Notes under the pieces: model-generated
What the model saw: only the letters and a program-made list of their open reading frames with translations
Database searches by the model: none
Told to the model about the DNA's origin: nothing
Part shown: piece after piece, positions 3-25,354 of the stretch
Layout: each line of letters begins with the position of its first letter
Position numbering within the stretch: the stretch's first letter is position 1
Translations under genes and position numbers: made by a program
Assembly: GCA_963707915.1 (NCBI GenBank)
Contig: OY970178.1
Location: 2,432,001 to 2,496,000, forward strand
Length of the DNA stretch: 64,000 nucleotides
From: Candidatus Eiseniibacteriota bacterium
GTDB lineage: Bacteria; Eisenbacteria; RBG-16-71-46
Direction of reading: 5' to 3'

Positions 3-458
3 CAGGGCGTCGAGTACGCGCGTGAAGCAACGAACCGGATCGTGCGATACACCGGGGGCTACCCGTACTTCCTGCAGGAGTACGGGAAGCACGTGTGGAA
101 TCTCGCAGAGCGGTCACCCATCTCGCTGGACGACGTGGAACGGGCCCACATCGGCGTGAGAGCGCAACTGGACGAGAACTTCTTCCAGGTCCGCATCGGC
201 CGGACGACTGCAGCCGAACGCCGCTACGTCTCGGCAATGGCCAGTCTGGGTCGGGGCCCGTACAGGACGGGTGAGATCGCCGCAGAGCTCGGCACGGACT
301 CTCCGCGGGTGGCCCCGCTTCGAAACCAGTTGATCACGAAGGGGTTGGTCTACAGTCCATCGCACGGGATCACGGATTTTACCGTCCCGCAATTCGATGA
401 TTTTCTGCGGCGGTGCTATCCGTTCGAGCGAGAGCCGAGAGCCAGACCTCGCCGCTGA
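3..458 (+). CDS. ATP-binding protein (AAA ATPase family), C-terminal part, 5'-truncated by window edge
   Basis: Open frame from window start; YTGGYPYFLQEYG helical segment and C-terminal winged-helix-like segment (R..LI.KGLVYSP.HG...FTVP.F..FL) typical of this family. Confidence 0.7.
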   Translation, partial: QGVEYAREATNRIVRYTGGYPYFLQEYGKHVWNLAERSPISLDDVERAHIGVRAQLDENFFQVRIGRTTAAERRYVSAMASLGRGPYRTGEIAAELGTDSPRVAPLRNQLITKGLVYSPSHGITDFTVPQFDDFLRRCYPFEREPRARPRR

Positions 459-9864: not shown

Positions 9865-10665
9865 ATGGCCGCCCGCGAGCACGTCACCGCCCTGCTGGTC
9901 GGCGTCGCGGCGGGCCTCGCGGGCGGCCTCTTCGGCGTCGGCGGCGGGATCCTGCTCGTGCCGCTGCTCACCGGCGTGCTCTGCCTGAGCCAGCACCAGG
10001 CGCACGGCACGTCCCTCGCCGCCATCGGCGCGACGGCGCTCGCCTCCTTGCTGGTCTACGGCACGCACGGCCACGTGGACTGGGGCACGGCGGCGCTGGT
10101 GGGGGCGGCCAGCATGCTCACGGCGCGCTACGGCGCGCGCCTGGCCGCGCGCACCTCGCGGCGGAACCTGCGACGCGCCTTCGCGCTCCTGCTCGTGTTC
10201 GTCGCGCTGCGCCTGCTGTGGAAGGCGCCCGCGGCCGCGGGTTCGCCGTTCCACGGCGTCGTGCCCGCGGTGGGCTTCGACCTGCTGCTGGGCGCTGCGA
10301 TCGGCCTGCTGGCCGGGTTCATGGGGGTCGGGGGCGGCCTGCTCGCCGTGCCCGCCTTCGCGCTCGTGCTCGGGATGACGCAGCAGACGGCCCAGGGCAC
10401 CTCGCTCGCCGTCATCCTGCTCACCGCCCCGGCGGGCGCCTTCGAACACCATCGCCACGGCAACGTGTCGCTGCGGCTGGTCCCCGCGCTCGCGCTGGGG
10501 GCCGCGGCCGGCGGCCCGGCCGCGTCGTGGCTGGCGCAGTGGCTGCCACAGGCCGTCCTGGCCCGGGCGTTCGCGGTGTTCCTGCTGGCGAACGTGGTTC
10601 ACCTGTGGGCCCGCGCGGGCCGGGGCGCCCCACCCCGTGCCGACCGCGAGGCGACGGCGGGCTGA
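9865..10665 (+). CDS. Sulfite exporter TauE/SafE family membrane protein
   Basis: Twice-repeated G..GVGGG...VP and A.GTSL motifs; about 8 TM segments. Confidence 0.88.
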   Translation: MAAREHVTALLVGVAAGLAGGLFGVGGGILLVPLLTGVLCLSQHQAHGTSLAAIGATALASLLVYGTHGHVDWGTAALVGAASMLTARYGARLAARTSRRNLRRAFALLLVFVALRLLWKAPAAAGSPFHGVVPAVGFDLLLGAAIGLLAGFMGVGGGLLAVPAFALVLGMTQQTAQGTSLAVILLTAPAGAFEHHRHGNVSLRLVPALALGAAAGGPAASWLAQWLPQAVLARAFAVFLLANVVHLWARAGRGAPPRADREATAG

Positions 10666-10769
10666 GTCCCCCCGAAGTCCTTGCCTCTTCGGTCGTTCCG
10701 GGCCGTCGGCCGAGGGCTTCCGCGACGCCTCGTTCCCGCGCCCCGCGAACGGCTCCTCGCTTTCGATGC

Positions 10770-10948
10770 GGTTCGAGCAAGCGGCGGCCGATACGTGGGG
10801 TAACGGCAGAGGGCTGCCCGTGACCCGGCGTGGGATCGAGTCCATGGCGGGAAGCGCAGCCGACGTCCGCCTTCGCGCGGATCCGGATCCGGACCAGGGA
10901 CAGGGTCCGCCCGGCACCACGTTCCACGAACGGCATGGAGGTCCCAGT
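10770..10948 (+). promoter_or_regulatory. Conserved 5' leader, copy C (diverged)
   Basis: Shares GGTTCGAGCA, GGGCTGCCCG, GAGTCCA, GCAGCC, GCGGAT, GGAC..CAGGGTCC blocks with leaders at 12026 and/or 17039. Confidence 0.55.
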
Positions 10949-11647
10949 ATGCGCAGGATGGTCTTCGCGCTCCTCGCGCTCGGCGTCTTCGCGGCTTCGG
11001 CGGCGTTCGCGGCGAGCGACGTCCGCATCAGCCAGGTCTTCGGCGGCAACAGCGCCACCAACTTCTACAACCAGGACTACGTGGAGTTGTACAACTCCAG
11101 CGGATCGGACGTGGACATCAGCGGCTGGGCGGTCGAGTACTCGTCCAGCGCCTCCACCGCGGTCTGGGGCGGCAGCGGCTCCACCTGGCAGACCTACTTC
11201 GTGTTCCCGGCCGGCGCGACGATCAAGGGCTGCGGGTACGTGCTCCTGGGCGGCGCCGAGACCGCCGGCGGCACGGCGATCCCCGCCGCGCTGGACTACG
11301 AGGTCGAGGGCGTCGGCTACATGAACCTCTCGACCAGCAGCGGCCGCGTGGGCCTGTTCAGCTCCTTCTACGCGGGCGCGGGTTGCGGCGCCGAGGGCGT
11401 CGTGCTGCTGGACAAGGTCGCGTACGGCACCGCGGCCTGCCCCGAGGGCACGGCTTCGGCCCCGGCGCCGTCGGGCGTCCTGGCGATCTTCCGCGGAGAC
11501 GGCGGTGCTCTCGACACCGATGAGAACTCGACCGACTTCGTCACCGGCACACCCGCGCCGCGCAACTCGACGTCGGCGACGAACGTGCTTTGCACCGTGC
11601 CGGCAATCCCCACCACGTGGGGCCAGCTCAAGAGTCGCTATCGGTAG
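10949..11647 (+). CDS. Secreted lamin-tail-domain (LTD) protein with TWG..K..YR tag
   Basis: Signal peptide; VRISQVFGG...DYVELYN..G..VDISGW.V.YSS LTD signature; DTDENSTDF..GTPAPRNS; ends TTWGQLKSRYR. Confidence 0.88.
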   Translation: MRRMVFALLALGVFAASAAFAASDVRISQVFGGNSATNFYNQDYVELYNSSGSDVDISGWAVEYSSSASTAVWGGSGSTWQTYFVFPAGATIKGCGYVLLGGAETAGGTAIPAALDYEVEGVGYMNLSTSSGRVGLFSSFYAGAGCGAEGVVLLDKVAYGTAACPEGTASAPAPSGVLAIFRGDGGALDTDENSTDFVTGTPAPRNSTSATNVLCTVPAIPTTWGQLKSRYR

Positions 11648-11670
11648 AGCCCCCGGGCTCAGGATGCTCG

Positions 11671-11699
11671 CGAGGCCCCGCCGGTCCGGCGGGGCCTCG
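11671..11699 (+). terminator. GC-rich hairpin
   Basis: CGAGGCCCCGCCGG-T-CCGGCGGGGCCTCG; same outer stem as 12935-12963. Confidence 0.6.
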
Positions 11700-11990
11700 T
11701 CGCTTGGCGGGCAGGGCCGGCAGCCGTTGCCCCGGGCCCGGTGCGGCCGGCCCGGTGCGGCCGGCCCGGCGTCGCGCCGCCGCGGCGGCGACCGCCGCAG
11801 GTCGTTCCGGCTCGGGCCTTTACGGCCGATCCTCCGATGAGCCTCGTGCCCCGCCGTGGGCCGGGCCGGGCCCGGGCAAGAGGCCCCAGCCGACGAACGA
11901 TGTAACAACGGGTTGGACGGCGACCGTGCGAAGTGCAACGGATTTCAGGGGTTCCGAGCCGTCACCCGCGAGTTCGGCAGGGCGTTACAC

Positions 11991-12019
11991 TTGAATTCCG
12001 CGCGACGTGATCCTATGAT
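11991..12019 (+). promoter_or_regulatory. Sigma70-like promoter
   Basis: TTGAAT-17nt-TATGAT; predicted TSS near 12026. Confidence 0.65.
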
Positions 12020-12025
12020 TATCCA

Positions 12026-12201
12026 GGTTCGAGCAGTGCAGCAAGGGTTGCTGAGATAGCAGCAGAAGGGGCCGCCCGTCCCCCGATACAGGCGCCAGTC
12101 CACCGTGGGAACCGCAGCCAGAGTCCACCTCCAGGCGGATAGGGACAAAGGTCAGGGTCCGCACGACACCGCAGTCCACGCACCACAGGGAGACCCACCC
12201 A
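12026..12201 (+). promoter_or_regulatory. Conserved structured 5' leader, copy A (candidate cis-regulatory RNA)
   Basis: Shares long exact blocks with 17039-17211 (TCCACCTCCAGGCGGATA, AAGGTCAGGGTCC, CACGCACCACAGGGAGACCC). Confidence 0.6.
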
Positions 12202-12915
12202 ATGCGTAAGCTGGTTATCGCTCTTCTCGCGCTCGGCGTCTTCGCGGCTTCTTCGGCGTTCGCGGCGAGCGACGTCCGCATCAGCCAGGTCTTCGGCGGC
12301 AACAGCGCCACCAACTATTACAACCAGGACTACATCGAGCTGTTCAACTCCAGCGGCGTGGACGTGGACATCAGCGGCTGGGCGGTCCAGTACTCGTCCA
12401 GCGCGGCCACCGCGGGCTGGGGCAGCAGCGGCGCCACCTATGCGACCTTCTTCGTGTTCCCGGCTGGCGCGAAGATCAAGGCCTGCTCGTACCTGCTCCT
12501 GGGCTGCGCCGAGACCACTGGTGCCACCAACACGATCCCGGTCGCGTTTGATTACGAAGTCCCGGGCGTTGGCTACCTGAACCTGTCGGCCACCACCGGC
12601 AAGGTGGGTCTGTTCAGCTCGCCGTACACGGCTACGGGAGTCTGCCCGGACGCGGTGGCGGTCCCCACGCTGCTGGACAAGGTGGCGTTTGGCACTGCCG
12701 GTTGCCCCGAGGGCGCTGCTTCCGCCCCGGCGCCGTCGGGCACGCTGGCGATCTTCCGCGCCAACGGCGGCATGCAGGACACCGATCAGAACGGTGCCGA
12801 CTTCACCACCGGCACGCCGGCTCCGCGCAATTCGCTGACGGCAATCAACCCGCTTTGCTCGCCCGTGCCGGCCGTGCCGACCACGTGGGGCAAGGTGAAG
12901 ACCATCTATCGGTAG
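12202..12915 (+). CDS. Secreted lamin-tail-domain protein with TWG..K..YR tag (tandem paralog of 10949-11647)
   Basis: Signal peptide, LTD signature, colinear with upstream paralog; ends TTWGKVKTIYR. Confidence 0.9.
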   Translation: MRKLVIALLALGVFAASSAFAASDVRISQVFGGNSATNYYNQDYIELFNSSGVDVDISGWAVQYSSSAATAGWGSSGATYATFFVFPAGAKIKACSYLLLGCAETTGATNTIPVAFDYEVPGVGYLNLSATTGKVGLFSSPYTATGVCPDAVAVPTLLDKVAFGTAGCPEGAASAPAPSGTLAIFRANGGMQDTDQNGADFTTGTPAPRNSLTAINPLCSPVPAVPTTWGKVKTIYR

Positions 12916-12928
12916 TTTTCGCACGGTA

Positions 12929-12970
12929 CCAACGCGAGGCCCCGCCCATCGGGCGGGGCCTCGACGTTGG
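12929..12970. terminator. Hairpin between convergent genes
   Basis: CCAACG-CGAGGCCCCGCCC-ATC-GGGCGGGGCCTCG-A-CGTTGG. Confidence 0.6.
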
Positions 12971-13015
12971 ATGGCCAGACGTTGTGGTGAGCTGGAACGC
13001 GCGCGGCCGTCGCCG

Positions 13016-15310
13016 TCAGGGCGCGAAGTGGAAGGGTCGGCCTGCTCTGTAACATGCGAGCTGCGCGGCGAAACGGCTGGCGGCCGCGGCGTCGCGCTCC
13101 GCGCGCGCCAGTTCGACGGCGCGCCTGCCTGCGCTGACCGCATCCCGGAATCGCCCCGCCTCCGCGTAGGCCGCCGCCAGCGTGCTGTAGAGCACCGCGA
13201 CCGGCGTCTTGCTGCGGTCCCGGGCCTGCTCGGCCATGCGGACGGCCTCGGCACCGTCTCGGCGCCGCGGGTCGGGGTGGGTCGCCCGGATCCAGGCGAT
13301 GTTGTTGAGTGCGTCCAGGTCGCTCGAATCCCTGCCCACCAGGACCCGGTATTCCGCGATCGCCTCCTCGACCCGGCCCGTGCGCGTGAGCGTGACCGCG
13401 AGCAGACGGCGATCTGCATCGTCCCTGGGCCGCAGCTTGACCACGCGCTTCAACGCGTCGGCGGCCTCGTTCAGCCGACCCTGCTGGCCGAGCGCGCCGG
13501 CCAGCTCCGTCAACGACCGCAGGTAGTCGGGATCGAGGCGCAGCGCGGCCTCGTACTCGGCGATGGCCTCGTCCACGCGGCCCAGCTTCATCAGCGTGCG
13601 CGCGATGTTGTGGTGGATGAGCGCGCTGTCGTCGGTCTTGAGGGCCAGCCGGAAGTGGGCCAGCGCCTCCTGGTAGTGCCCGCGCGCGGCCAGCGTGCTG
13701 CCGAGGTTCACGTGGACCTTAGCGATGTCCCGCGTCCGGAGCACCTCGCGCAGTTGCGCGATCGCCTCGTCCAGCCGGCCCAGCTTGGCCAGTGCGCCGG
13801 CAAGGTTCAGGCGGGCGTCGGCATAGCCCGGGGCCACCCGCAGCACGTCCTCGAAGTGCCGCATGGCCGGCTGGATGCGCCCGGCATCGAGCAACTCGCT
13901 GCCCAGACACTGGTTCGCCGTCGGGTTCGTGGGATCCAGTTCGAGCGTGTAAGTGAAGAGCGTGTGGTTGTCCTTCCACAGGGCGACCTGCCGCGCGGTG
14001 CCCACGGCGCCGGCCACGACCAGTGCGACGGCGGCGACGGCGGCGGCGATGCGCGCGGAGCGGCCGCGCGGCCAGACCTCGTCCACCGTCCAGACCGCGG
14101 CGATCATGAAACCGATGACCGTCAGGTAGGTGTAGCGGTCGGCGTAGGCCTGCATGCCCACCTGCACGAGCCCGATGACCGGCAGCAACATGCCCACGTA
14201 CCAGAGCCAGCCCACCGTGATGTGGGGGCGCGCCCGCCCCCACCACAGGGCCAGCGCGGTGGTGACCAGCAGGGCCGCGGCCGCCAGCATGCCACGGCCG
14301 CCGATGTCGAAGGTCATCTGGTGGAACGGCATCAGGTCGTGCGGCCAGAAGGTCAGCCCCAGGTAACGCCAGTAGGAGAGCGAAGCGTTGAGCACGCGGA
14401 AGCTCCACGACAGGTTCCCCTCGCCGACCACGGCCCCGGTCGCCCGCTGGACGAAGAACGTGGTCGTCGCCTGGGCCAGCACCAGCAGGAACATCGGCCA
14501 CTTCTCGGCGAGCAGGCCGGGCAGCCCGAGGACCGGCGCGCCGCAGGGGGCCCCGGCGGGACGCGCGCGCAGGGGCCAGCCCCGCAGCCGGCCCAGCGGC
14601 CAGATGTCCAGCAGCACGAGGACGAAGGGCAGCGTCACCAGCATGGGCTTGGACATCAGGCCGAGAGCGAGGAGGACCACGACCAGCGCGTAGCGTCCGC
14701 GCCCGGGGCGCTCCGCCCAGCGCGCGTAGGTCCACAGCACGAGCATGAAGAAGAAGCCGCTCAGGACGTCCTTGAGCTCCGAGATCCACGCCACGGATTC
14801 GACCCGCAGCGGGTGCACCGCGAACAGCGCGGCCACGAACAGGCTCTTCCACCAGGACCGCGTGAGCCGGCCCAGGGCCAGGGCCAGCAGCAGCGCGTTC
14901 AGGACGTGCAACACCAGATTCACCGCGTGGTGGGCCCCGGCCTCCAGGCCGAAGGCCTGCGCAGTGAGCATGTGGACCACGGAGGTGAGGGGATGGAAGT
15001 TCCCGCCGTGGGGCGAGTGCAGGATCCAGCGCAATCCGTCCAACGTGAGCCCATTGCTGATGTGCGGGTTCGCACTCACGTACTCGGGGTCGTCGTAGAG
15101 GATCCAGCCGCTGCGCAGCACCCCCGCGAACGCGGCGACGGTCACGCCGGCCAGCAGTGCCAGCGACGCCGGGCGCTGGAGCCGGGCCCAGAGGACCGCG
15201 GGCGTGACGGGCGCCGGGGCCGCGGCGGCCGGCGGGGACGGCGGGGCGACGGGGTCGGGCGCGGGGCTCGGGCCGGGGGAATGCGGGCGGGGTCTCCTCA
15301 CTCGCGGCAT
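13016..15310 (-). CDS. TMTC-like GT-C membrane glycosyltransferase with C-terminal TPR repeats
   Basis: WILYDDPEYV (DD motif), NFHPLT, HHAVNLVLH..N, LFAVHPLRVESVAWISE.KD, MSKPM.VTLP, ADRYTYL, then TPRs and ALNNIAWI.AT; start inferred. Confidence 0.85.
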   Translation of the reverse strand: MPRVRRPRPHSPGPSPAPDPVAPPSPPAAAAPAPVTPAVLWARLQRPASLALLAGVTVAAFAGVLRSGWILYDDPEYVSANPHISNGLTLDGLRWILHSPHGGNFHPLTSVVHMLTAQAFGLEAGAHHAVNLVLHVLNALLLALALGRLTRSWWKSLFVAALFAVHPLRVESVAWISELKDVLSGFFFMLVLWTYARWAERPGRGRYALVVVLLALGLMSKPMLVTLPFVLVLLDIWPLGRLRGWPLRARPAGAPCGAPVLGLPGLLAEKWPMFLLVLAQATTTFFVQRATGAVVGEGNLSWSFRVLNASLSYWRYLGLTFWPHDLMPFHQMTFDIGGRGMLAAAALLVTTALALWWGRARPHITVGWLWYVGMLLPVIGLVQVGMQAYADRYTYLTVIGFMIAAVWTVDEVWPRGRSARIAAAVAAVALVVAGAVGTARQVALWKDNHTLFTYTLELDPTNPTANQCLGSELLDAGRIQPAMRHFEDVLRVAPGYADARLNLAGALAKLGRLDEAIAQLREVLRTRDIAKVHVNLGSTLAARGHYQEALAHFRLALKTDDSALIHHNIARTLMKLGRVDEAIAEYEAALRLDPDYLRSLTELAGALGQQGRLNEAADALKRVVKLRPRDDADRRLLAVTLTRTGRVEEAIAEYRVLVGRDSSDLDALNNIAWIRATHPDPRRRDGAEAVRMAEQARDRSKTPVAVLYSTLAAAYAEAGRFRDAVSAGRRAVELARAERDAAAASRFAAQLACYRAGRPFHFAP

Positions 15311-15321
15311 CCTATGCGGAA

Positions 15322-16725
15322 TCATCCATCGACGGTAGTGGCGCCGGGCTTGGCCAGCGTCCGCATGGGGCGCACCGCGCGTCCGTCGCCGCTCGCGGGC
15401 GGGCGGCCGGAGACGAGCTGGTAGGCCGGGTCGAAGAGGATGACGGGCGGCCGCGTGCGGCGATCGATGCTGCGGTAGAGGGTGTCGAAGAAGACCGCCA
15501 CCTCGGCGGGATCGTCGCCGCGGCGGGGCAGCGGGACGCCCTCGAACGGATCGAACCCGTGGCGCCGGATGAAGCGCTCGCGCGGCAGCGGGTTCGTGAG
15601 GATCGTGGTGTTGATGACCTCGAGGTCGCGCTTCTCGCCCTGCAGCCACTGGTACACCCGCAGGCGCTGGTACCCGTCGTCGGGCCAGAAGACCATCCCG
15701 CTGTCCGACGGAATGGAGTTCCACCGCGCGCGCAGCACCGCGACCACGAGCAGCGCGAGCACCGGGAACAGGAAGGGATAGATGTCGTGGGCGAGCACGC
15801 GCTGTTCCTCGGGGTAGGGCGCGAAGCGGCCGAGCATGTACCGGTACATCGCCCCCGTGGCGTGCTGGTAGAAGTCCCGGACCGACGGGCCGAGGGTGGG
15901 CCAGTTCGCCGGACCATGGCCCTGCGCCCGGAAGTAGAGCAGGGCATAGCTCGAGAGCGGCACGAGGCTGGCGACCGGGCCGAGCCACACGAGCTCCGCC
16001 CGCAGGCGGCGCGCCTTCCACAGCGCCCACAGGAGGCCGAGCGACAGCGGAACGAAGACCCAGGCCGCGGTGACGTGGTGGGCGAGCCCGGCGCCGCAGA
16101 GGAGTCCCCAGAGCACCGCGCTCCAGCGCAGCCGGCCCGTGGACGCGCCCGCGCGAGAGTCGAGCCGGCGGACCAGCCCCACGAAGAAGAGGCACATCCC
16201 GCCCACCAGCGCGAGGTGCCAGCTATAGACCTCGCTGGCGGTGGTCACGTCGGTCCATGCGGGGTTGAGGGCGAAGAGCGGCAGCGGCAGCAGGCCGACC
16301 AGGAATCGCGCCCGCCGTCCGAGCGCGGCCTCGGGCGGGACGAGGCGCACCGCGAGCGCGTGCAGGAAGAACACCGTCACCCCGCCACCCAGCGCACTCC
16401 AGGCGCTCGCGGCATAGGCCCAGCCCGCACCGAGGGCGTGCATCGCGTGCACGAACCCGCCGCCCAGCAGGGTGTAGAGCGGGTAGCCGGTGGGATGGGC
16501 GATGCCGTCCAGGGCGAGGGCCAGGGTGAGCTCGCTCGAGTCGCCGTCGCCCGGAACGGCAGGGGCCAGCAGCAGGTAGACCGCCAGCGCCATGAGCGCG
16601 GGGAGCACGGACCAGAGGATCGGCAGGGCGCGGGCCGACCGGGATTCGGCCCCGGCGGCGCCGCGGTCCCGGGAAGGGTCTTCCCGGCTCGTCGGTCCGC
16701 GTTTCGATCCCACCGGTCTTGCCAT
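15322..16725 (-). CDS. DUF2723 / TMEM260-like membrane glycosyltransferase
   Basis: GDSSELT.....GIAHPTGYPLYTLLG, W..T.SEVY, GLAHH motifs; multiple TM helices. Confidence 0.8.
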   Translation of the reverse strand: MARPVGSKRGPTSREDPSRDRGAAGAESRSARALPILWSVLPALMALAVYLLLAPAVPGDGDSSELTLALALDGIAHPTGYPLYTLLGGGFVHAMHALGAGWAYAASAWSALGGGVTVFFLHALAVRLVPPEAALGRRARFLVGLLPLPLFALNPAWTDVTTASEVYSWHLALVGGMCLFFVGLVRRLDSRAGASTGRLRWSAVLWGLLCGAGLAHHVTAAWVFVPLSLGLLWALWKARRLRAELVWLGPVASLVPLSSYALLYFRAQGHGPANWPTLGPSVRDFYQHATGAMYRYMLGRFAPYPEEQRVLAHDIYPFLFPVLALLVVAVLRARWNSIPSDSGMVFWPDDGYQRLRVYQWLQGEKRDLEVINTTILTNPLPRERFIRRHGFDPFEGVPLPRRGDDPAEVAVFFDTLYRSIDRRTRPPVILFDPAYQLVSGRPPASGDGRAVRPMRTLAKPGATTVDG

Positions 16726-17003
16726 GACCGGGCATCCTATCTCACGCGCCCCGGCTGGCAAGCGGGCGAAGCGCGACGCGGCGCCGGGATGCCTGGCTCC
16801 GCCGCGGCCACCGCGGCCCATCCAGGCCCGGGCCGTCGCGGCGGCCCGGATGCCGGACGTCATGCACTTGCGGGCCGATCCCGGCCCGGGTGAAAACCCC
16901 CGATACCACCGCCCACGGGACAGCGAGCTGAACCGTTGGCGGCGTGGCGACGCGATCTTCGGGAGATCCCGCCCGGATCCGCGCGCCTTCCCCGGTTCTC
17001 TCC

Positions 17004-17032
17004 TTGTGTCGTGCGCACGGGTTCAATATGCT
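17004..17032 (+). promoter_or_regulatory. Sigma70-like promoter
   Basis: TTGTGT-17nt-TATGCT, at nearly the same distance from the ATG as the promoter at 11991. Confidence 0.55.
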
Positions 17033-17038
17033 TGTCGT

Positions 17039-17211
17039 GCTCCAACGTGCGCCGACGTCGGGAGGACAGTGCCAGCAGGGCTGCCCGTCCCCGGACGACG
17101 GGCGCGAGTCCACCGTGAGAACCGCAGCCCGACTCCACCTCCAGGCGGATACGGACGAAGGTCAGGGTCCCCACGACATCACGGTTCACGCACCACAGGG
17201 AGACCCCCAAC
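17039..17211 (+). promoter_or_regulatory. Conserved structured 5' leader, copy B
   Basis: Near-identical to 12070-12201; perfect stem GCCCGTC/GACGGGC at 17083-17103. Confidence 0.6.
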
Positions 17212-17943
17212 ATGCGCAGAATGGTTATCACTCTCCTCGCTCTCGGCGTTTTCGCGGCGTCGGCAGCCTCCGCTGCCACTTTCTGGAGTGAGACGTTCAG
17301 CTACGCGAACGGCGGACTCGTGGCCAACTCGGGCGGAAACTGGGTCGGGCACAGCACGAGCACGTCCACCACCTACATCGACATCCAGGTCGTCAACGGC
17401 GAAGCCGTGCTCATCGGTGCCAACGGCCAGGACGACAGCCGCAACTTCACCGCCCGGAGCGCCTCGGCGGCAACGTATGCCTGCTTCCAGATGAAGTTGA
17501 CGGGAACGGAGACCTCCGGCAGCTCCTACGTCACACACTTCAAGAACAACAGCACCGGGTTCGTGAGCCAGGTGTTCGTCTTCCCGACCGGCGCCACCAC
17601 GTTCAACATCGGCATCAACTCCACCTCCGCGGTCCCGACCGGTGCCTCCATCTGGCCGACCCCGCTCACCAAGGGCACCTTCTACACGATCGCCATCCGG
17701 TACAATGCGGCCACCGGCGTCTCGACGCTCTGGGTGGACCCGCAGAGCGAATCGAGCGCGAGCATCAACTCGACGACCACCACCATTGGCACCCTGATTT
17801 CCGGATTCGCGCTTCGCCAGGCCACCGGCGCCAGCACGACCTTCGACAACATCCAGGTCGGCGACGCCTTTGCCGATCTTTGCCCGGCAGTCGTGCCCAC
17901 CAACAGCAGCACCTGGGGCCAGCTGAAGTCCCTGTACCGGTAG
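17212..17943 (+). CDS. Secreted Ser/Thr-rich beta-sandwich-like protein with TWG..K..YR tag
   Basis: Signal peptide nearly identical to the LTD paralogs, unrelated mature domain (FWSETFSYANG...FDNIQVG); ends STWGQLKSLYR. Confidence 0.85.
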   Translation: MRRMVITLLALGVFAASAASAATFWSETFSYANGGLVANSGGNWVGHSTSTSTTYIDIQVVNGEAVLIGANGQDDSRNFTARSASAATYACFQMKLTGTETSGSSYVTHFKNNSTGFVSQVFVFPTGATTFNIGINSTSAVPTGASIWPTPLTKGTFYTIAIRYNAATGVSTLWVDPQSESSASINSTTTTIGTLISGFALRQATGASTTFDNIQVGDAFADLCPAVVPTNSSTWGQLKSLYR

Positions 17944-17974
17944 GTTTCGTCCGCGGGCGACCGCGTTCGCTTCA

Positions 17975-18008
17975 CACCAGGGCCCGGCTGCGAAGCCGGG
18001 CCCTGGTG
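17975..18008 (+). terminator. GC-rich hairpin with GNRA loop
   Basis: CACCAGGGCCCGGCT-GCGA-AGCCGGGCCCTGGTG, perfect 15-bp stem. Confidence 0.65.
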
Positions 18009-18167
18009 CTGGTGGGCGACTGGGTCCAGGTCGCCGCCGGGTGGTAGAATCGAGGCCGGATCCACGGATCCGCATCGTCTGCCACGGTCCCGATTGGCGG
18101 CCCGCCGCCCTGGCCCCGCCCTGCTGAGTCTCCCCGAAACTCGCTCCCGAAAGGCGGGCTGGACACC

Positions 18168-20921
18168 ATGAAGAAGTGGGCTGCTCCGTTCCTCGCGGCG
18201 GTACTCGTCCTCGCGGCGCTCCTGCCCTCGCCCGCGCAGTCGGCGATCATCATCTCCGAGCTGTGCGATCCGCTGAACAACTACCCCACCGACCGCTTCA
18301 TCGAGATCGCCAACGCCGGCACGGACACCGTGGACCTGGCGGGCTGGACGCTGGTCGCGCTGATGAACACCACCGGCACGCCCGGCTCGTTCACCTGGCC
18401 GCTCTCGGGCTCGATCGCCCCCGGCCAGGCCCTGGTCGCGAGCAGCACGACGCCGGTCACGGTCTTCCCGGTGACCTTCGCCGCTGCCGCGTGGTCGTCC
18501 AGCAATGCCCAGTGGAACGGCGCGATCGGCGACGGGGCGAAACTGGTGAACGCGAGCGCCGTGACGGTGGACTACGTCACCGTGCCCGGGACCGTCTTCT
18601 CGAACGCCACCATGGTCCGCAAGCCCAGCATCTACGCGGGCAACTCCGCTTACGTCGCCGCCGAGTGGACCGTGACCGCGGTCACGCTGGCCACCGATGC
18701 GAGCCCCGGCACGCACGTCCTGAACCCGCTGCCGCCGGGACCGTCCATCAAGCAGGTGGTCACCGACCCCCCGGTCCCGCTGGCCGGCGCGGGCGTGAAC
18801 GTGCAGGCCACCGTGACCGATTCCGCCGCGGCCATCACCTCGGTCGCGCTGCTGTGGGGGACCAGCCCCTCGTCGCTGTCCAACACCATCGCCATGCCGC
18901 TCCTCGCGGACAGCACCTATCGCACGACCACGCCGGTACCGGGACAGGCCGAGGGCGTGACCGTCTACTACAAGGTCCAGGCCAGTGATGCGTCGGTGAC
19001 CAAACTCTCCGAGCTGAAGAGCTACACGCTCGACTACGACCGGACCATCGCGCAGATCCAGGGCGGCGTCCCTACCTCGCCTTTCAACGGCCTCGGCGTC
19101 ATCACCCGCGGGGTCGTCACCGCGCGCTATCCCTCGTACCTGGTCGTGCAGGACGGCAGCGGGCCGTGGAGCGGCCTGTGGGTGCGCAGCAGCGCCACGC
19201 CCACGGTCGGCGACTCGGTCACCGTGCGCGGCCTGGTCACCGAGAGCGACGTCCAGGGCCTGGCCGGCACGACGCTGCTGACCAGCGGGATCGTGCTCGC
19301 CGCCTCCCCCGCGGCCACCTTCCCCGCGCCCGCCGTGGTCACCAGCGCCGTCGCGTCGTCGGAGGCCTACGAGGGCGTGCTGGTCAAGGTCGCGAGCGCG
19401 CCCTGCACGGACGTCTCGCTCGGCTCCGGGCAGTGGCTGGTGAACGACGGCAGCGGCGCCTGCCGGGTGGGCGCGCTGGGATACGCCTTCACGCCGATCC
19501 TCGGCACGGCCTACGACGTGACCGGCCCGGTCCTCTACAGCGGCGCCTTCGTGATCGAGCCGCGCGAAGCGGGCGACGTCGCCTGGGCGGCGGACCACGC
19601 CGCGCCCGTCGTGGTCGCGCTGTTCGAGGAGAGCGACTCGACCCTGCTCGTGACCTTCTCCGAGCCGCTCGAGCAGGCCAGCGCCGAGACCCCCACCCAC
19701 TACGCGGTCGGCGCTCACGTCGCGACCGCCGCGGTGCTCGACCTCGCGCACCCCGAGCAGGTCACGGTCACCGTGCCCGGGATCCCCGCCGGCTCGGTCA
19801 CCTTCTCCGCCACCGGCGTGGCCGACCTGTACGCCAACGCCACCAGCGGTGCGACCTGGGCCTTCAACTTCGTGGACACGCGCATCCCCGCGGGCTACTA
19901 CGACAGCGCGTTCGGGCTGCGCGGCACGGCGCTGCGCGCCGCGCTGCACGACATCATCAAGAACCACGCCTCGCAGAGCTACGACTACGCGCTGACCGCC
20001 TTCCAGACCACCGACGTCAAGCCCAACCGCAAGGTCTGGGACGTGTACTCGGACGTCCCGGGCGGCACGCCGCCCTACGAGTACGACTTCGGCGGGGGCA
20101 GCGGAGGCGGGACGGAGGGCGGCGGCTACAACCGGGAGCACTCCTGGCCGCAGTCCTGGTTCGGCGGCGCCCTGCCGATGTACTCCGACCTGTGGATCCT
20201 CTACCCGACCGACATCAAGGTGAACGAGTACCGCGCCAACTGGCCGTACGGCGACGTCTCGACCCCGACCATCACCTCGCTGAACGGCAGCATGCTCGGG
20301 CCATGCTCCGACGCCGGTTACTCCGGCACCGCGTTCGAGCCGATCGACGCCTTCAAGGGCGACCTGGCGCGCAGCCACTTCTACGTCGCCACGCGCTACT
20401 ACACCGAGGACGCCGGTTGGGCGACCAGCGAGGCCACCAGCGGCGCGGACCTGCTGCCGTGGGCGAACACCACGTACCTCGCCTGGCACGCGAACGACCC
20501 CGTGAGCCGCAAGGAGCAGTTGCGCAACGGCGCCATCTACGTGATCCAGAACAACCGCAACCCGTTCGTGGATCACCCGGAGTTCGCCGCGCGGCTGTTC
20601 GACTCGACTTCGACCGCGGCCGTGACCGACGTGCCGCGGCTGGCGTTCCGCCTGCACCAGAACGCGCCCAACCCGTTCCGTCCCTCGACCACCATCCGCT
20701 TCGACCTGCCCCAGCGTGCGGCGGTCAGCCTGCGCGTCTACGACGTCGCGGGCCGGCTGGTGCGTGAACTGGTGTCGGGGAACACGCTCGAGGCGGGCAC
20801 GCACTCGGTGGCCTGGAACGGGCGGGGCGAGTCCGGGCAGCGCGTCGGCGCCGGGCTCTACTTCTGCCGCCTGCAGGCCGGGGCGTTCAGCGCGACGCGG
20901 CGGATGGTGCTCGCCAACTGA
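18168..20921 (+). CDS. Secreted endonuclease I family nuclease (LTD + OB-fold + EndA/Bsn-like + FlgD-Ig C-terminal domain)
   Basis: Signal peptide, IIISE...FIEI.N LTD, TIAQIQG..GVVTA OB-fold, YNREHSWPQSWF, KGDLAR, QNNRNPFVDHPE, LHQNAPNPF.PST.I.F.L...VYDV.GRLVR...W.G....G.V.AG.YF CTD. Confidence 0.9.
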   Translation: MKKWAAPFLAAVLVLAALLPSPAQSAIIISELCDPLNNYPTDRFIEIANAGTDTVDLAGWTLVALMNTTGTPGSFTWPLSGSIAPGQALVASSTTPVTVFPVTFAAAAWSSSNAQWNGAIGDGAKLVNASAVTVDYVTVPGTVFSNATMVRKPSIYAGNSAYVAAEWTVTAVTLATDASPGTHVLNPLPPGPSIKQVVTDPPVPLAGAGVNVQATVTDSAAAITSVALLWGTSPSSLSNTIAMPLLADSTYRTTTPVPGQAEGVTVYYKVQASDASVTKLSELKSYTLDYDRTIAQIQGGVPTSPFNGLGVITRGVVTARYPSYLVVQDGSGPWSGLWVRSSATPTVGDSVTVRGLVTESDVQGLAGTTLLTSGIVLAASPAATFPAPAVVTSAVASSEAYEGVLVKVASAPCTDVSLGSGQWLVNDGSGACRVGALGYAFTPILGTAYDVTGPVLYSGAFVIEPREAGDVAWAADHAAPVVVALFEESDSTLLVTFSEPLEQASAETPTHYAVGAHVATAAVLDLAHPEQVTVTVPGIPAGSVTFSATGVADLYANATSGATWAFNFVDTRIPAGYYDSAFGLRGTALRAALHDIIKNHASQSYDYALTAFQTTDVKPNRKVWDVYSDVPGGTPPYEYDFGGGSGGGTEGGGYNREHSWPQSWFGGALPMYSDLWILYPTDIKVNEYRANWPYGDVSTPTITSLNGSMLGPCSDAGYSGTAFEPIDAFKGDLARSHFYVATRYYTEDAGWATSEATSGADLLPWANTTYLAWHANDPVSRKEQLRNGAIYVIQNNRNPFVDHPEFAARLFDSTSTAAVTDVPRLAFRLHQNAPNPFRPSTTIRFDLPQRAAVSLRVYDVAGRLVRELVSGNTLEAGTHSVAWNGRGESGQRVGAGLYFCRLQAGAFSATRRMVLAN

Positions 20922-23981: not shown

Positions 23982-25354
23982 TGAAGCAACCGGGGACATG
24001 GGTGACAGGACAGACCGGGCACATGGGTAACACATTCTAGCTTCCATAACGGCGGCGACGACGTCTGCTCAAGGCAGGATCAACGATGGGTTCGAGCCGC
24101 CCAAAGTGGCGGGGTCCGCGGTCGGTGGCCTGCTTGAGATCTAGCAGTCCGATCGGCACCCAGCCGAAGTGGACACGCCACCGGCCATCGTCGCAGGGCT
24201 CGAGTCCGACCCGTTCGCCGACGAGGCAGTTGCTCACGTACCACTGCGTGGTGCCGAAGGTGATCACGCCGTTGGGATAGGCCACCCGGGTCTCGAAGTG
24301 TCGCGGGTACTCTGGTTCGGGGAGCTCGCGCGGGTACGAGCGAAGCGATGGGCGGTAAAGCGCGGCCGGCACCTCCTGGCCGAGCGCCTCGTGCGGCCGC
24401 TCCTGGTTGTACTCCGTCTGGAAGCGATCGAACGCGCGTTGCTGGGCGCTGAAGCTCGAGCGCGGCGGTCTGGCGGTCTCGGCTTTCAAGGTGCGATGCA
24501 TGCGCTCGTGGCGCCCGTTCTGTTCGGGACGACCTGGCATGATGCGTTCGGGACGGATCCCGAGTCGGATCCACCAGACCGAGAGACGCGACAGTCCGCC
24601 CGGGGCGAGCGTCGAGAACGGCGGCCCGTTATCGGTGCGGATCGCCCTCGGCAAGCCGTATTCGGTGAAAGCGGACTCGAAGACGCGCCGGACATGCTGA
24701 GTGAGCGGACGACGCAGGGCGCGGCAGCGAAGGAGCAGGCGACTGTATCCATCGCTGATGGTCAGCGGATGACAGCGTTCACCCCGGCGACCCAGCGGGA
24801 AGTGGCCCTTGAAGTCGGCACACCAGACGGCGTTGGGTGCGTCGTACTGCCGCAGCCGGTCCCCGTACGGTGAGCTGCGCCGGACTCGCCGGCGCGGGCG
24901 AACCAGTCCGCTGCGCCTCAGGATGTCGCCGATCGTGCTGGCCGCCGGGAGCGCGACCGGCGGCCGTTCCCGCTTCAGCACCACCCGCACCTTGCGTGGT
25001 CCCCAACGCGGATGGCGACGTCGGATCGCGACGATCGCCTGCACGAGGTCGGCGGCGACGGCGTTGGGATGAGAGTGCGGCGCGCGTGAGATCTCCTCGA
25101 GGGCCGCGACCCCGTCGGCCTCATAACGACGGACCCACTTGTACCCCGTCTTCCGGCTGACCCCGAAGTCGTGGCACAAGTCGGAGAAGCTGGCCTCCGC
25201 CTGCAGGTAGGCGGCAATGAACTTCACTCGTTCAGACATCCAGTCGGTCCTCGCCCAGGGCATCGTGTGGTCCTCCTCGAACCACCCATGATGCCCGCGG
25301 GCTGTAACCCATGTCCCCGGTCTGATCTGTTACCAGTGTGCCCGGTCTGAACCA
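23982..25354 (-). mobile_element. IS481-family insertion sequence
   Basis: TG...CA ends; imperfect ~50-bp terminal inverted repeats (23982-24032, 25303-25354), each two tandem ~25-bp units with ACCGGG[G/C]ACA..GGT.ACA; CC on both flanks. Confidence 0.85.
24037..25263 (-). CDS. IS481-family DDE transposase
   Basis: MPW...R..F HTH (FGVSRKTGYKW..RY), HPRWG.RK, WCADFKG (D), IRTDNG.PF (D), QNGRHERMHRTLK (E), YN.ERPHEALG; GAGGAGG RBS. Confidence 0.95.
   Translation of the reverse strand: MPWARTDWMSERVKFIAAYLQAEASFSDLCHDFGVSRKTGYKWVRRYEADGVAALEEISRAPHSHPNAVAADLVQAIVAIRRRHPRWGPRKVRVVLKRERPPVALPAASTIGDILRRSGLVRPRRRVRRSSPYGDRLRQYDAPNAVWCADFKGHFPLGRRGERCHPLTISDGYSRLLLRCRALRRPLTQHVRRVFESAFTEYGLPRAIRTDNGPPFSTLAPGGLSRLSVWWIRLGIRPERIMPGRPEQNGRHERMHRTLKAETARPPRSSFSAQQRAFDRFQTEYNQERPHEALGQEVPAALYRPSLRSYPRELPEPEYPRHFETRVAYPNGVITFGTTQWYVSNCLVGERVGLEPCDDGRWRVHFGWVPIGLLDLKQATDRGPRHFGRLEPIVDPALSRRRRRRYGS

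Follow-up and report, generated by a model that had tools for sequence, protein, structure and literature searches.

A conserved leader with compensatory helix changes precedes genes for unrelated secreted proteins in one family of Candidatus Eisenbacteria

Why do genes for secreted proteins with different mature parts share the DNA in front of their start codons? The question is raised by three genes, here named A, B and C, in a window of 64,000 nucleotides (nt; the whole stretch of DNA that was analyzed) from Candidatus Eiseniibacteriota (assembly GCA_963707915.1, contig OY970178.1, positions 2,432,001 to 2,496,000). Features lie on the plus strand unless stated otherwise. Gene A (12202..12915) encodes a 237-amino-acid (aa) secreted lamin-tail-domain (LTD) protein, gene B (17212..17943) a 243-aa secreted protein of no Pfam family, and gene C (10949..11647) a 232-aa LTD protein paralogous to A. 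All three end in the C-terminal tag TWGxxKxxYR (TWG tag), as an earlier sequence-only reading had stated. That reading also called the mature proteins of A and B unrelated, which is correct (25% global identity); the mature parts of A and C share 70% amino acid identity. We favor, with a probability of roughly 55%, that the shared segments belong to a genuine, lineage-restricted family of structured 5' leaders that tune mRNA stability or translation and are possibly bound by a protein.

Leader A occupies 12020..12201, leader B 17033..17211 and leader C 10763..10948. In blastn searches these were the only copies in the genome (3.62 Mb, 72% G+C), and they lie within 6.5 kb of one another. A and B are 87.6% identical over 129 nt (E 1e-39), B and C 70.7% over 133 nt, and A and C 67.9% over 137 nt; the next-best matches in the genome had E values of at least 0.011. 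The five sequence blocks quoted in the earlier reading were all found in A and B at the positions claimed. A 23-nt block pattern matched A and B only (0 expected), and an 18-nt degenerate pattern matched A, B and C (0.08 expected). A covariance model (CM) of 186 positions, R1, was built from 10 sequences. It matched leader A at 12019-12207 (164.6 bits), leader B at 17032-17217 (159.5 bits) and leader C at 10763-10954 (100.7 bits). Leader C is a diverged copy, as had been described.

Leaders A and B follow promoters of the sigma-70 type. That of A (11991..12019) consists of TTGAAT, a 17-nt spacer and TATGAT, that of B (17004..17032) of TTGTGT, a 17-nt spacer and TATGCT. From the end of the -10 box to the ATG there are 182 nt in A and 179 nt in B, nearly equal distances, as described earlier. 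A consensus scan of 10600-18200 returned two promoter-like sites, A's promoter among them, where 0.2 were expected; the promoter of B was read from the sequence and is matched by the pattern TTGnnn-16..18-TAnnnT. Such a box was present in 23 of 25 distinct homologous loci (background 0.0019 per scanned window). In 22 of these 23 the end of the box and the model start are only 1-3 nt apart; the exception is L033, where the model start is misaligned. The pattern scan of the 25 loci found no box at the expected place in C and in one further genome (G077). Judged by the promoter position, transcription of A would start at about 12026-12028, upstream of all helices described below.

With leader A as blastn query, all 7 other genomes of the genus matched, one of them in the signal-peptide part only, and no match was obtained in 29 genomes from other genera of the family or in 24 genomes beyond the family. 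R1 detected between 1 and 3 copies of the leader in every one of the 8 genomes of the genus. Within the order 14 of 102 genomes matched, all from one family (six genera, 13 of 88 genomes); 13 genomes from two sister families gave none. In an even sample of the phylum 11 of 151 genomes matched, again from that family alone (10 of 59), and there were no matches in 91 genomes from 16 other families. On metagenome contigs chosen by a motif scan, 12 of 12 loci matched the model. A second model, R2, was limited to hairpin H1, junction J and hairpin P1 and excluded the Shine-Dalgarno (SD) sequence and the ATG. It recovered the same loci and one true diverged member (G110, L058); a match in G024 (E 7.7e-4) and most matches at E 0.004-0.05 were not located before such genes. 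Known families were searched with Rfam 15. No match reached gathering scores in the whole window; at E <= 5 the region 10500-17500 contained one chance match to mir-219, outside the leaders, and at E <= 1 there was none in 14 homologous loci. The earlier reading likewise recognized no known riboswitch consensus. In the literature library searched, no paper joins 'Eisenbacteria' with 'riboswitch'.

The association with one kind of gene is tight. All 29 matches of the model, and likewise G110, end at the ATG of an open reading frame (ORF) that starts with MRK, MRR or MKR followed by a hydrophobic signal segment; in G110 the MKR start and the TWG-tagged frame were read from the sequence. The ORFs behind the leader have 230-266 aa. 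The TWG tag ends 17 of the 18 ORFs that could be seen completely; in the 12 metagenome loci the N-termini alone are visible. In the exception, G004b, the leader (L012:48-236) precedes a 258-aa LTD-like protein without the tag. The mature parts belong to at least three unrelated types, namely LTD, the type of B and a third type. Conversely, 27 ORFs of the genome end in a tail of the form W[GSA]x[LVIM][KR]xx[YFW][RKH], and with three copies the leader precedes no more than 3 of these roughly 27 tagged genes. Of 89 genomes of the family, 27 have B-type genes, but among the 26 other loci this leader is present in only 5; the remaining B-type loci, in sister genera, have promoters and leaders of similar length whose sequence is unalignable. 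The protein-atlas clusters nearest to protein B are commonest in Candidatus Eiseniibacteriota.

Leader divergence was compared with neutral decay. DNA upstream of the promoter is about 51% identical, which is the random baseline of the aligner, and the leader averages 62%. The leader was more similar than the DNA ahead of the promoter in 45 of 49 gene pairs of the same type and in 54 of 56 pairs of different type. In close species the leader is kept much better than the mature coding part; for A and G005 the values were 83% for the leader, 58% for the mature coding sequence and 64% for upstream DNA. Leader similarity was independent of gene type (62.0% vs 62.4%). Synonymous codon identity was 0.56 in the signal peptide and 0.64 in the mature part. 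On these values a constraint at the RNA level within the signal-peptide codons was rejected; they suggest that such constraint stops near the start codon; they also give no indication of a recent conversion of the whole 5' module.

Three hairpins are supported in the leader. Hairpin P1, a stem already proposed in the sequence-only reading, is well supported. In A it lies together with the junction GGGG-CC at 12068..12093 (GCCCGU, loop CCCCCGAU, ACAGGC). Its consensus, GCCCGU-loop-ACGGGC, is nearly invariant, 95% of cells are paired, and G005 carries the compensatory change GCUCGU/ACGAGC beside a few G-U variants. A further element, missed by that reading, is the 5' hairpin H1, located at 12047..12063 in A (GUUGCU/AGCAGC, loop GAGAU). 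In relatives H1 reads GGGUUGC-CNGNGA-GCAAC, and 5 of 5 pairs are altered on both sides in some sequences. The base pairing CGUG/CACG and the apical part, the stem previously named P3, are both parts of one long irregular hairpin. This hairpin, now P2, extends over 12104..12165 in A with its apex around CCUCCAGGCGG. The stem proposed as P4 (GGAC/GTCC around a purine-rich loop) is unsupported, because covariation pairs this GGAC with an upstream GUCC. P2 of A is followed by a CA-rich 3' tract, the SD sequence GGGAG (12188-12192) and a C-rich spacer (together 12166..12201), with the ATG at 12202. In leader B, P1, P2 and the SD sequence are found at 17083-17103, 17114-17175 and 17198-17202; in leader C, P1 lies at 10817-10834 and the P2 segment at 10842-10917. 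Near-invariant bases are the GGG of J, C61 and C63 in the P1 loop and the CNGNGA loop of H1.

P2 keeps its form and not its sequence. Its length is 59-76 nt in 27 distinct sequences, and it cannot be aligned by sequence between genera. Where groups of sequences can be aligned, both sides of its helices have changed many times; one pair, for example, is UA in 11 sequences and CG in 10, another AU in 14, GC in 7 and UA in 2. When 10 sequences were aligned with MAFFT, blind to structure, 90.4% of cells could pair, a share that sliding the partners lowered to 27-48%. Two-sided changes were seen in 11 of 38 pairs, compared with 2-8 in the slid controls. The CM alignment, with 28 distinct sequences, gave 87.5% pairing (31-43% with slid partners) and two-sided changes in 23 of 38 pairs, figures that are biased towards the model's own structure. 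RNAalifold, applied to a blind alignment of 26 distinct sequences, kept only H1 and P1; it drops P2 because P2 is not alignable by sequence. G-U exceeds A-C in P2 by 29 to 10, which favors an RNA read from the sense strand; the corresponding counts are 5 vs 2 in H1 and 4 vs 1 in P1.

Three further pairings were considered and discarded. A closing helix GGGCC/GGUCC around P1-P2 is confined to the genus, shows no two-sided change and falls to 73-80% pairing in the wider set. A start-codon helix CGCA/UGCG is either invariant or broken, without two-sided change, and has 3 bp in several genera. A pairing of the 5' segment with sequence further downstream was dropped, as each lineage has a different best partner. 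The GGGG before P1 could in addition pair with the pyrimidine-rich start of the P1 loop, and such pairing is compatible in 91% of cells. The resulting H-type pseudoknot appears sterically plausible. We treat it as possible, since only one of its pairs changes two-sidedly.

A GC-rich hairpin also follows each of the three genes. Behind gene A it was read from the sequence at 12936..12962 (GAGGCCCCGCCC-AUCG-GGGCGGGGCCUC) and is absent from the terminator scan because it has no U-run. Behind gene B a terminator-like hairpin of 15 bp was read at 17975..18008, and behind gene C one lies at 11672..11698. Due to these long hairpins, genes C, A and B each look monocistronic. The stems after C (11672-11698) and A (12936-12962) are near-identical (GAGGCCCCGCC...GGCGGGGCCUC). 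The shared 3' stem suggests that two constant modules frame the variable mature part of these genes, one at the 5' side made up of promoter, leader and signal peptide, the other at the 3' side made up of TWG tag and hairpin.

On this basis we propose the following model. Each copy would have a sigma-70-type promoter of its own and form the head of a short monocistronic mRNA, closed by the GC-rich 3' hairpin. The encoded product is a small secreted protein that begins with an MRK signal peptide and ends in the TWG tag. The RNA would present, in this order, H1, the conserved P1 with or without the pseudoknot, the variable P2 of about 65 nt, the unpaired CA-rich tract, the SD sequence and the AUG. 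The leader would act after transcription start and give different cargo genes the same set-point of mRNA stability and translation, with the CA-rich tract serving as a landing tract ahead of a strong SD sequence. A trans-acting partner common to all copies is suggested by the near-invariant bases of loops and junction. These bases are probably its docking site, the partner being a protein such as CsrA or another RNA binder, and would in this model not form a small-molecule pocket.

CsrA itself deserves consideration. The genome has one CsrA gene, and most copies have ACA-R-GGA at the SD sequence, which is the core of the consensus obtained for CsrA by systematic evolution of ligands by exponential enrichment (SELEX). 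Leaders regulated by CsrA or RsmA have at least two GGA sites, one at the SD sequence and one in a hairpin loop. In the leaders described here no conserved second GGA loop was seen; the H1 loop is CGGAGA in only a few sequences, and a GGA belongs to any strong SD sequence.

Several observations weigh against our preferred interpretation, among them this missing second site. We infer both the transcription start and the existence of the 5' untranslated region (UTR) itself, and H1 begins about 20 nt after the start predicted from the promoter position. H1 is changed in A and unrecognizable in B and C; in leader B its position holds a different sequence. H1 and P1 are palindromes in DNA as well, and symmetric changes in them can therefore not separate RNA helices from the half-sites of an operator. 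The fold stability of P2 was not above that of shuffled sequences (z of -1.67 for A, -0.24 for B and -0.32 for C), and z was -2.2 or lower in only 8 of 20 homologs. The bias of the CM alignment belongs here too. For the paralogs A and C the leader (64%) is more diverged than the coding sequence (79%), and averaged over pairs of the same type, leader and coding DNA are equal (62% each). Finally, codon usage gives no sign of high expression. The codon adaptation values of A (0.64) and B (0.61) compare with 0.69-0.85 for ribosomal-protein genes and a background mean of 0.745; as the index does not set ribosomal-protein genes apart from the background, it is uninformative here and the low values of A and B say little.

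The same features could also arise if the leader were a passive cassette for high expression, whose fold protects the mRNA and insulates the ribosome-binding site without any regulator or signal. Monocistronic units, a strong promoter, a strong SD sequence and 3' hairpins fit such a cassette, and so does P2, with its free sequence and its maintained length and hairpin shape. Leaders in sister genera are similar in length and different in sequence. Accessibility calculations are likewise in line with it: the predicted unpaired probability from SD to AUG was 0.51 for native leaders and 0.48 with shuffled upstream sequence (higher in 18 of 26), so that the upstream fold is predicted neither to hide nor clearly to expose this region. 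Structured 5' UTRs that stabilize mRNAs of abundant envelope or secreted proteins are known from the E. coli ompA leader, S-layer gene leaders and the cry3A STAB-SD of B. thuringiensis. The leaders here resemble them as hairpin leaders of about 130-200 nt before monocistronic genes for exported proteins, with a strong SD sequence, a 3' hairpin and a proposed action after transcription start. They differ in that a classical 5' stabilizer needs a hairpin at the very 5' end of the mRNA, whereas H1 lies away from the predicted end; in addition, loop and junction bases are conserved across genera. A passive cassette leaves these near-invariant bases, kept across six genera and metagenome sequences, unexplained; the position of H1 away from the predicted 5' end speaks against it too, and the codon signal of high expression is missing, if only by an uninformative test. 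We consider it possible, though unlikely, that nothing more than such a cassette is present.

A riboswitch for a metabolite or ion was part of the original proposal. Here H1, the pseudoknotted P1 and P2 would form an aptamer whose ligand changes the translation of the secreted proteins. Covarying stems, near-invariant loop and junction bases, the sterically feasible pseudoknot and the absence of any matching known family fit this idea, as does the cis position before co-localized genes beside a secreted nuclease. The pseudoknot would be comparable to the compact ones of preQ1-I/II, SAM-II and guanidine-III riboswitches in a 5' UTR; a 5' G-run would form 4 bp with the loop of a 6-bp hairpin, and the loop lengths fit. 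In contrast to these, it would lie about 110 nt upstream of the SD sequence with a 65-nt hairpin in between. No expression platform was detected either. The terminator scan found no intrinsic terminator within the leaders, the best anti-SD partner differed from sequence to sequence with none consistent, alternative pairing of the 5' segment was equally inconsistent, and SD accessibility is flat. Riboswitch aptamers are expected to be conserved over wide phylogenetic distance; this leader is limited to one family of the phylum, and orthologous genes in sister genera have other leaders where an aptamer should have persisted. Furthermore, the genes encode secreted structural or binding proteins and not metabolic enzymes or transporters, and two of the genome's three copies have a degenerate H1. 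A riboswitch is therefore disfavored, and we give it little credence. What stands of the original proposal is a conserved structured leader outside Rfam, behind a conserved promoter and common to genes for unrelated mature proteins, which is compatible with a protein-binding or stability leader. The broader idea that H1, pseudoknot and P2 are the sensor of a new RNA class, binding a ligand or a protein and switching on the small TWG-tagged surface proteins (LTD, jelly-roll-like) around a secreted LTD endonuclease as one regulon, seems to us just as doubtful.

Other modes of control were compared with the leaders as well. Processive antitermination of the RfaH/ops, UpxY, LoaP or EAR kind goes with a specialized NusG paralog and a long downstream operon; here the genome has a single gene of the NusG family and a strong hairpin stands after each gene. 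The terminator-free leaders, the single NusG gene and the monocistronic units argue against a transcription attenuator and against antitermination by a NusG paralog. Inspection of the alignments revealed no conserved small ORF in the leader, although no dedicated ORF scan was run; the alignments contain indels of 1-2 nt in loops and the unalignable P2. The apex of H1, GCCAGAGAGC, resembles the motif of the PyrR binding loop (Rfam RF00515), UCCAGAGAGG. Unlike that element, the leaders have no Rfam match, the H1 loop varies as CNGNGA, and no pyrimidine genes are nearby.

H1 and P1 might instead be palindromic DNA operators of a dimeric transcription factor binding downstream of the promoter, the RNA fold being incidental. 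The inverted repeats GTTGC-N6-GCAAC and GCCCGT-N7-ACGGGC have conserved spacers and lie at about +22 to +70, and the symmetric change in G005 (GCTCGT/ACGAGC) suits half-sites equally well. However, the two-sided changes of P2 and its excess of G-U over A-C make sense only for sense-strand RNA, some G-U pairs occur in H1 and P1 too, and the conserved CA-rich tract and SD context are features of RNA; operators are thus quite improbable. The least probable explanation is that the leader is a functionless remnant of duplication or gene conversion of a promoter, leader and signal-peptide module, as the closeness of the copies, a similarity that tracks species and not gene type and the decaying, promoterless C might suggest, since the leader is conserved across genera and metagenome contigs above upstream DNA at baseline, compensatory changes maintain its helices and the synonymous sites of the signal peptide do not indicate recent conversion.

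A second kind of leader was noticed before B-type genes of other genera. In L075, L082, L084 and L097 a hairpin acgggCCGAGAcccgt is located 50-90 nt before the ATG; its loop has the CNGNGA form of H1 and its stem resembles P1 with the strands swapped. Some B-type leaders not matched by R1 have a common 3' tract GCAUC...CAGCAC...AAGGAG alongside this hairpin. An H1-like hairpin with a CNGNGA loop was found in 4 of 21 such leaders, mutually related (background 0.14 per kb). As a general mark of TWG genes it was dismissed, with none in 22 TWG genes of the genome itself.

The neighborhood of the leader genes is partly conserved. The leader gene sits after a gene of the TauE/SafE family in 17 of 26 loci, and C is placed right after the TauE gene, in the slot where most relatives keep their copy. 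The same slot is used in L014, L015, L017, L018, L019, L024, L025, L028, L029, L058 and seven metagenome loci. Behind the common leader the mature type at this slot differs by species (LTD, B or third type). This could result either from differential loss of tandem paralogs or from exchange of the cargo between constant ends. The spacer between gene C and the promoter of A contains a short tandem repeat of a GGCCCGGTGCGGCC-like unit at about 11733-11771. Downstream of gene A, an 817-aa ORF of no Pfam family (12971-15424) has an unusually low G+C content at third codon positions (GC3) of 0.73; it is kept beside the leader gene in G005. Gene B is followed by a gene for a 917-aa secreted protein (18168-20921) that combines LTD, Endonuclease I (Endonuclease_1) and a FlgD-Ig-like C-terminal domain (FlgD_ig). 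A homolog of this nuclease comes after the leader gene in G004 and G005, and extracellular DNA appears to be the common theme of the locus. An IS481-type transposase (24037-25263; rve, HTH, LZ_Tnp_IS481) is encoded on the minus strand, roughly 6 kb downstream of gene B.

To our knowledge, Candidatus Eisenbacteria have no cultured member and nothing is known of the control of their gene expression. The leader offers a testable element in this phylum, with a defined promoter, three helices with compensatory changes and invariant bases in its loops. It is always associated with one class of exported proteins, next to an extracellular nuclease. Should the improbable sensor turn out to be true, Eisenbacteria would couple the capture of extracellular DNA to a signal inside the cell. 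The discovery of a partner, be it a protein or a ligand, would make the regulation of the TWG-tagged secretome accessible for the first time. If the leader is only a stabilizer, it would represent a compact natural module of insulator and ribosome-binding site that works with unrelated coding sequences.

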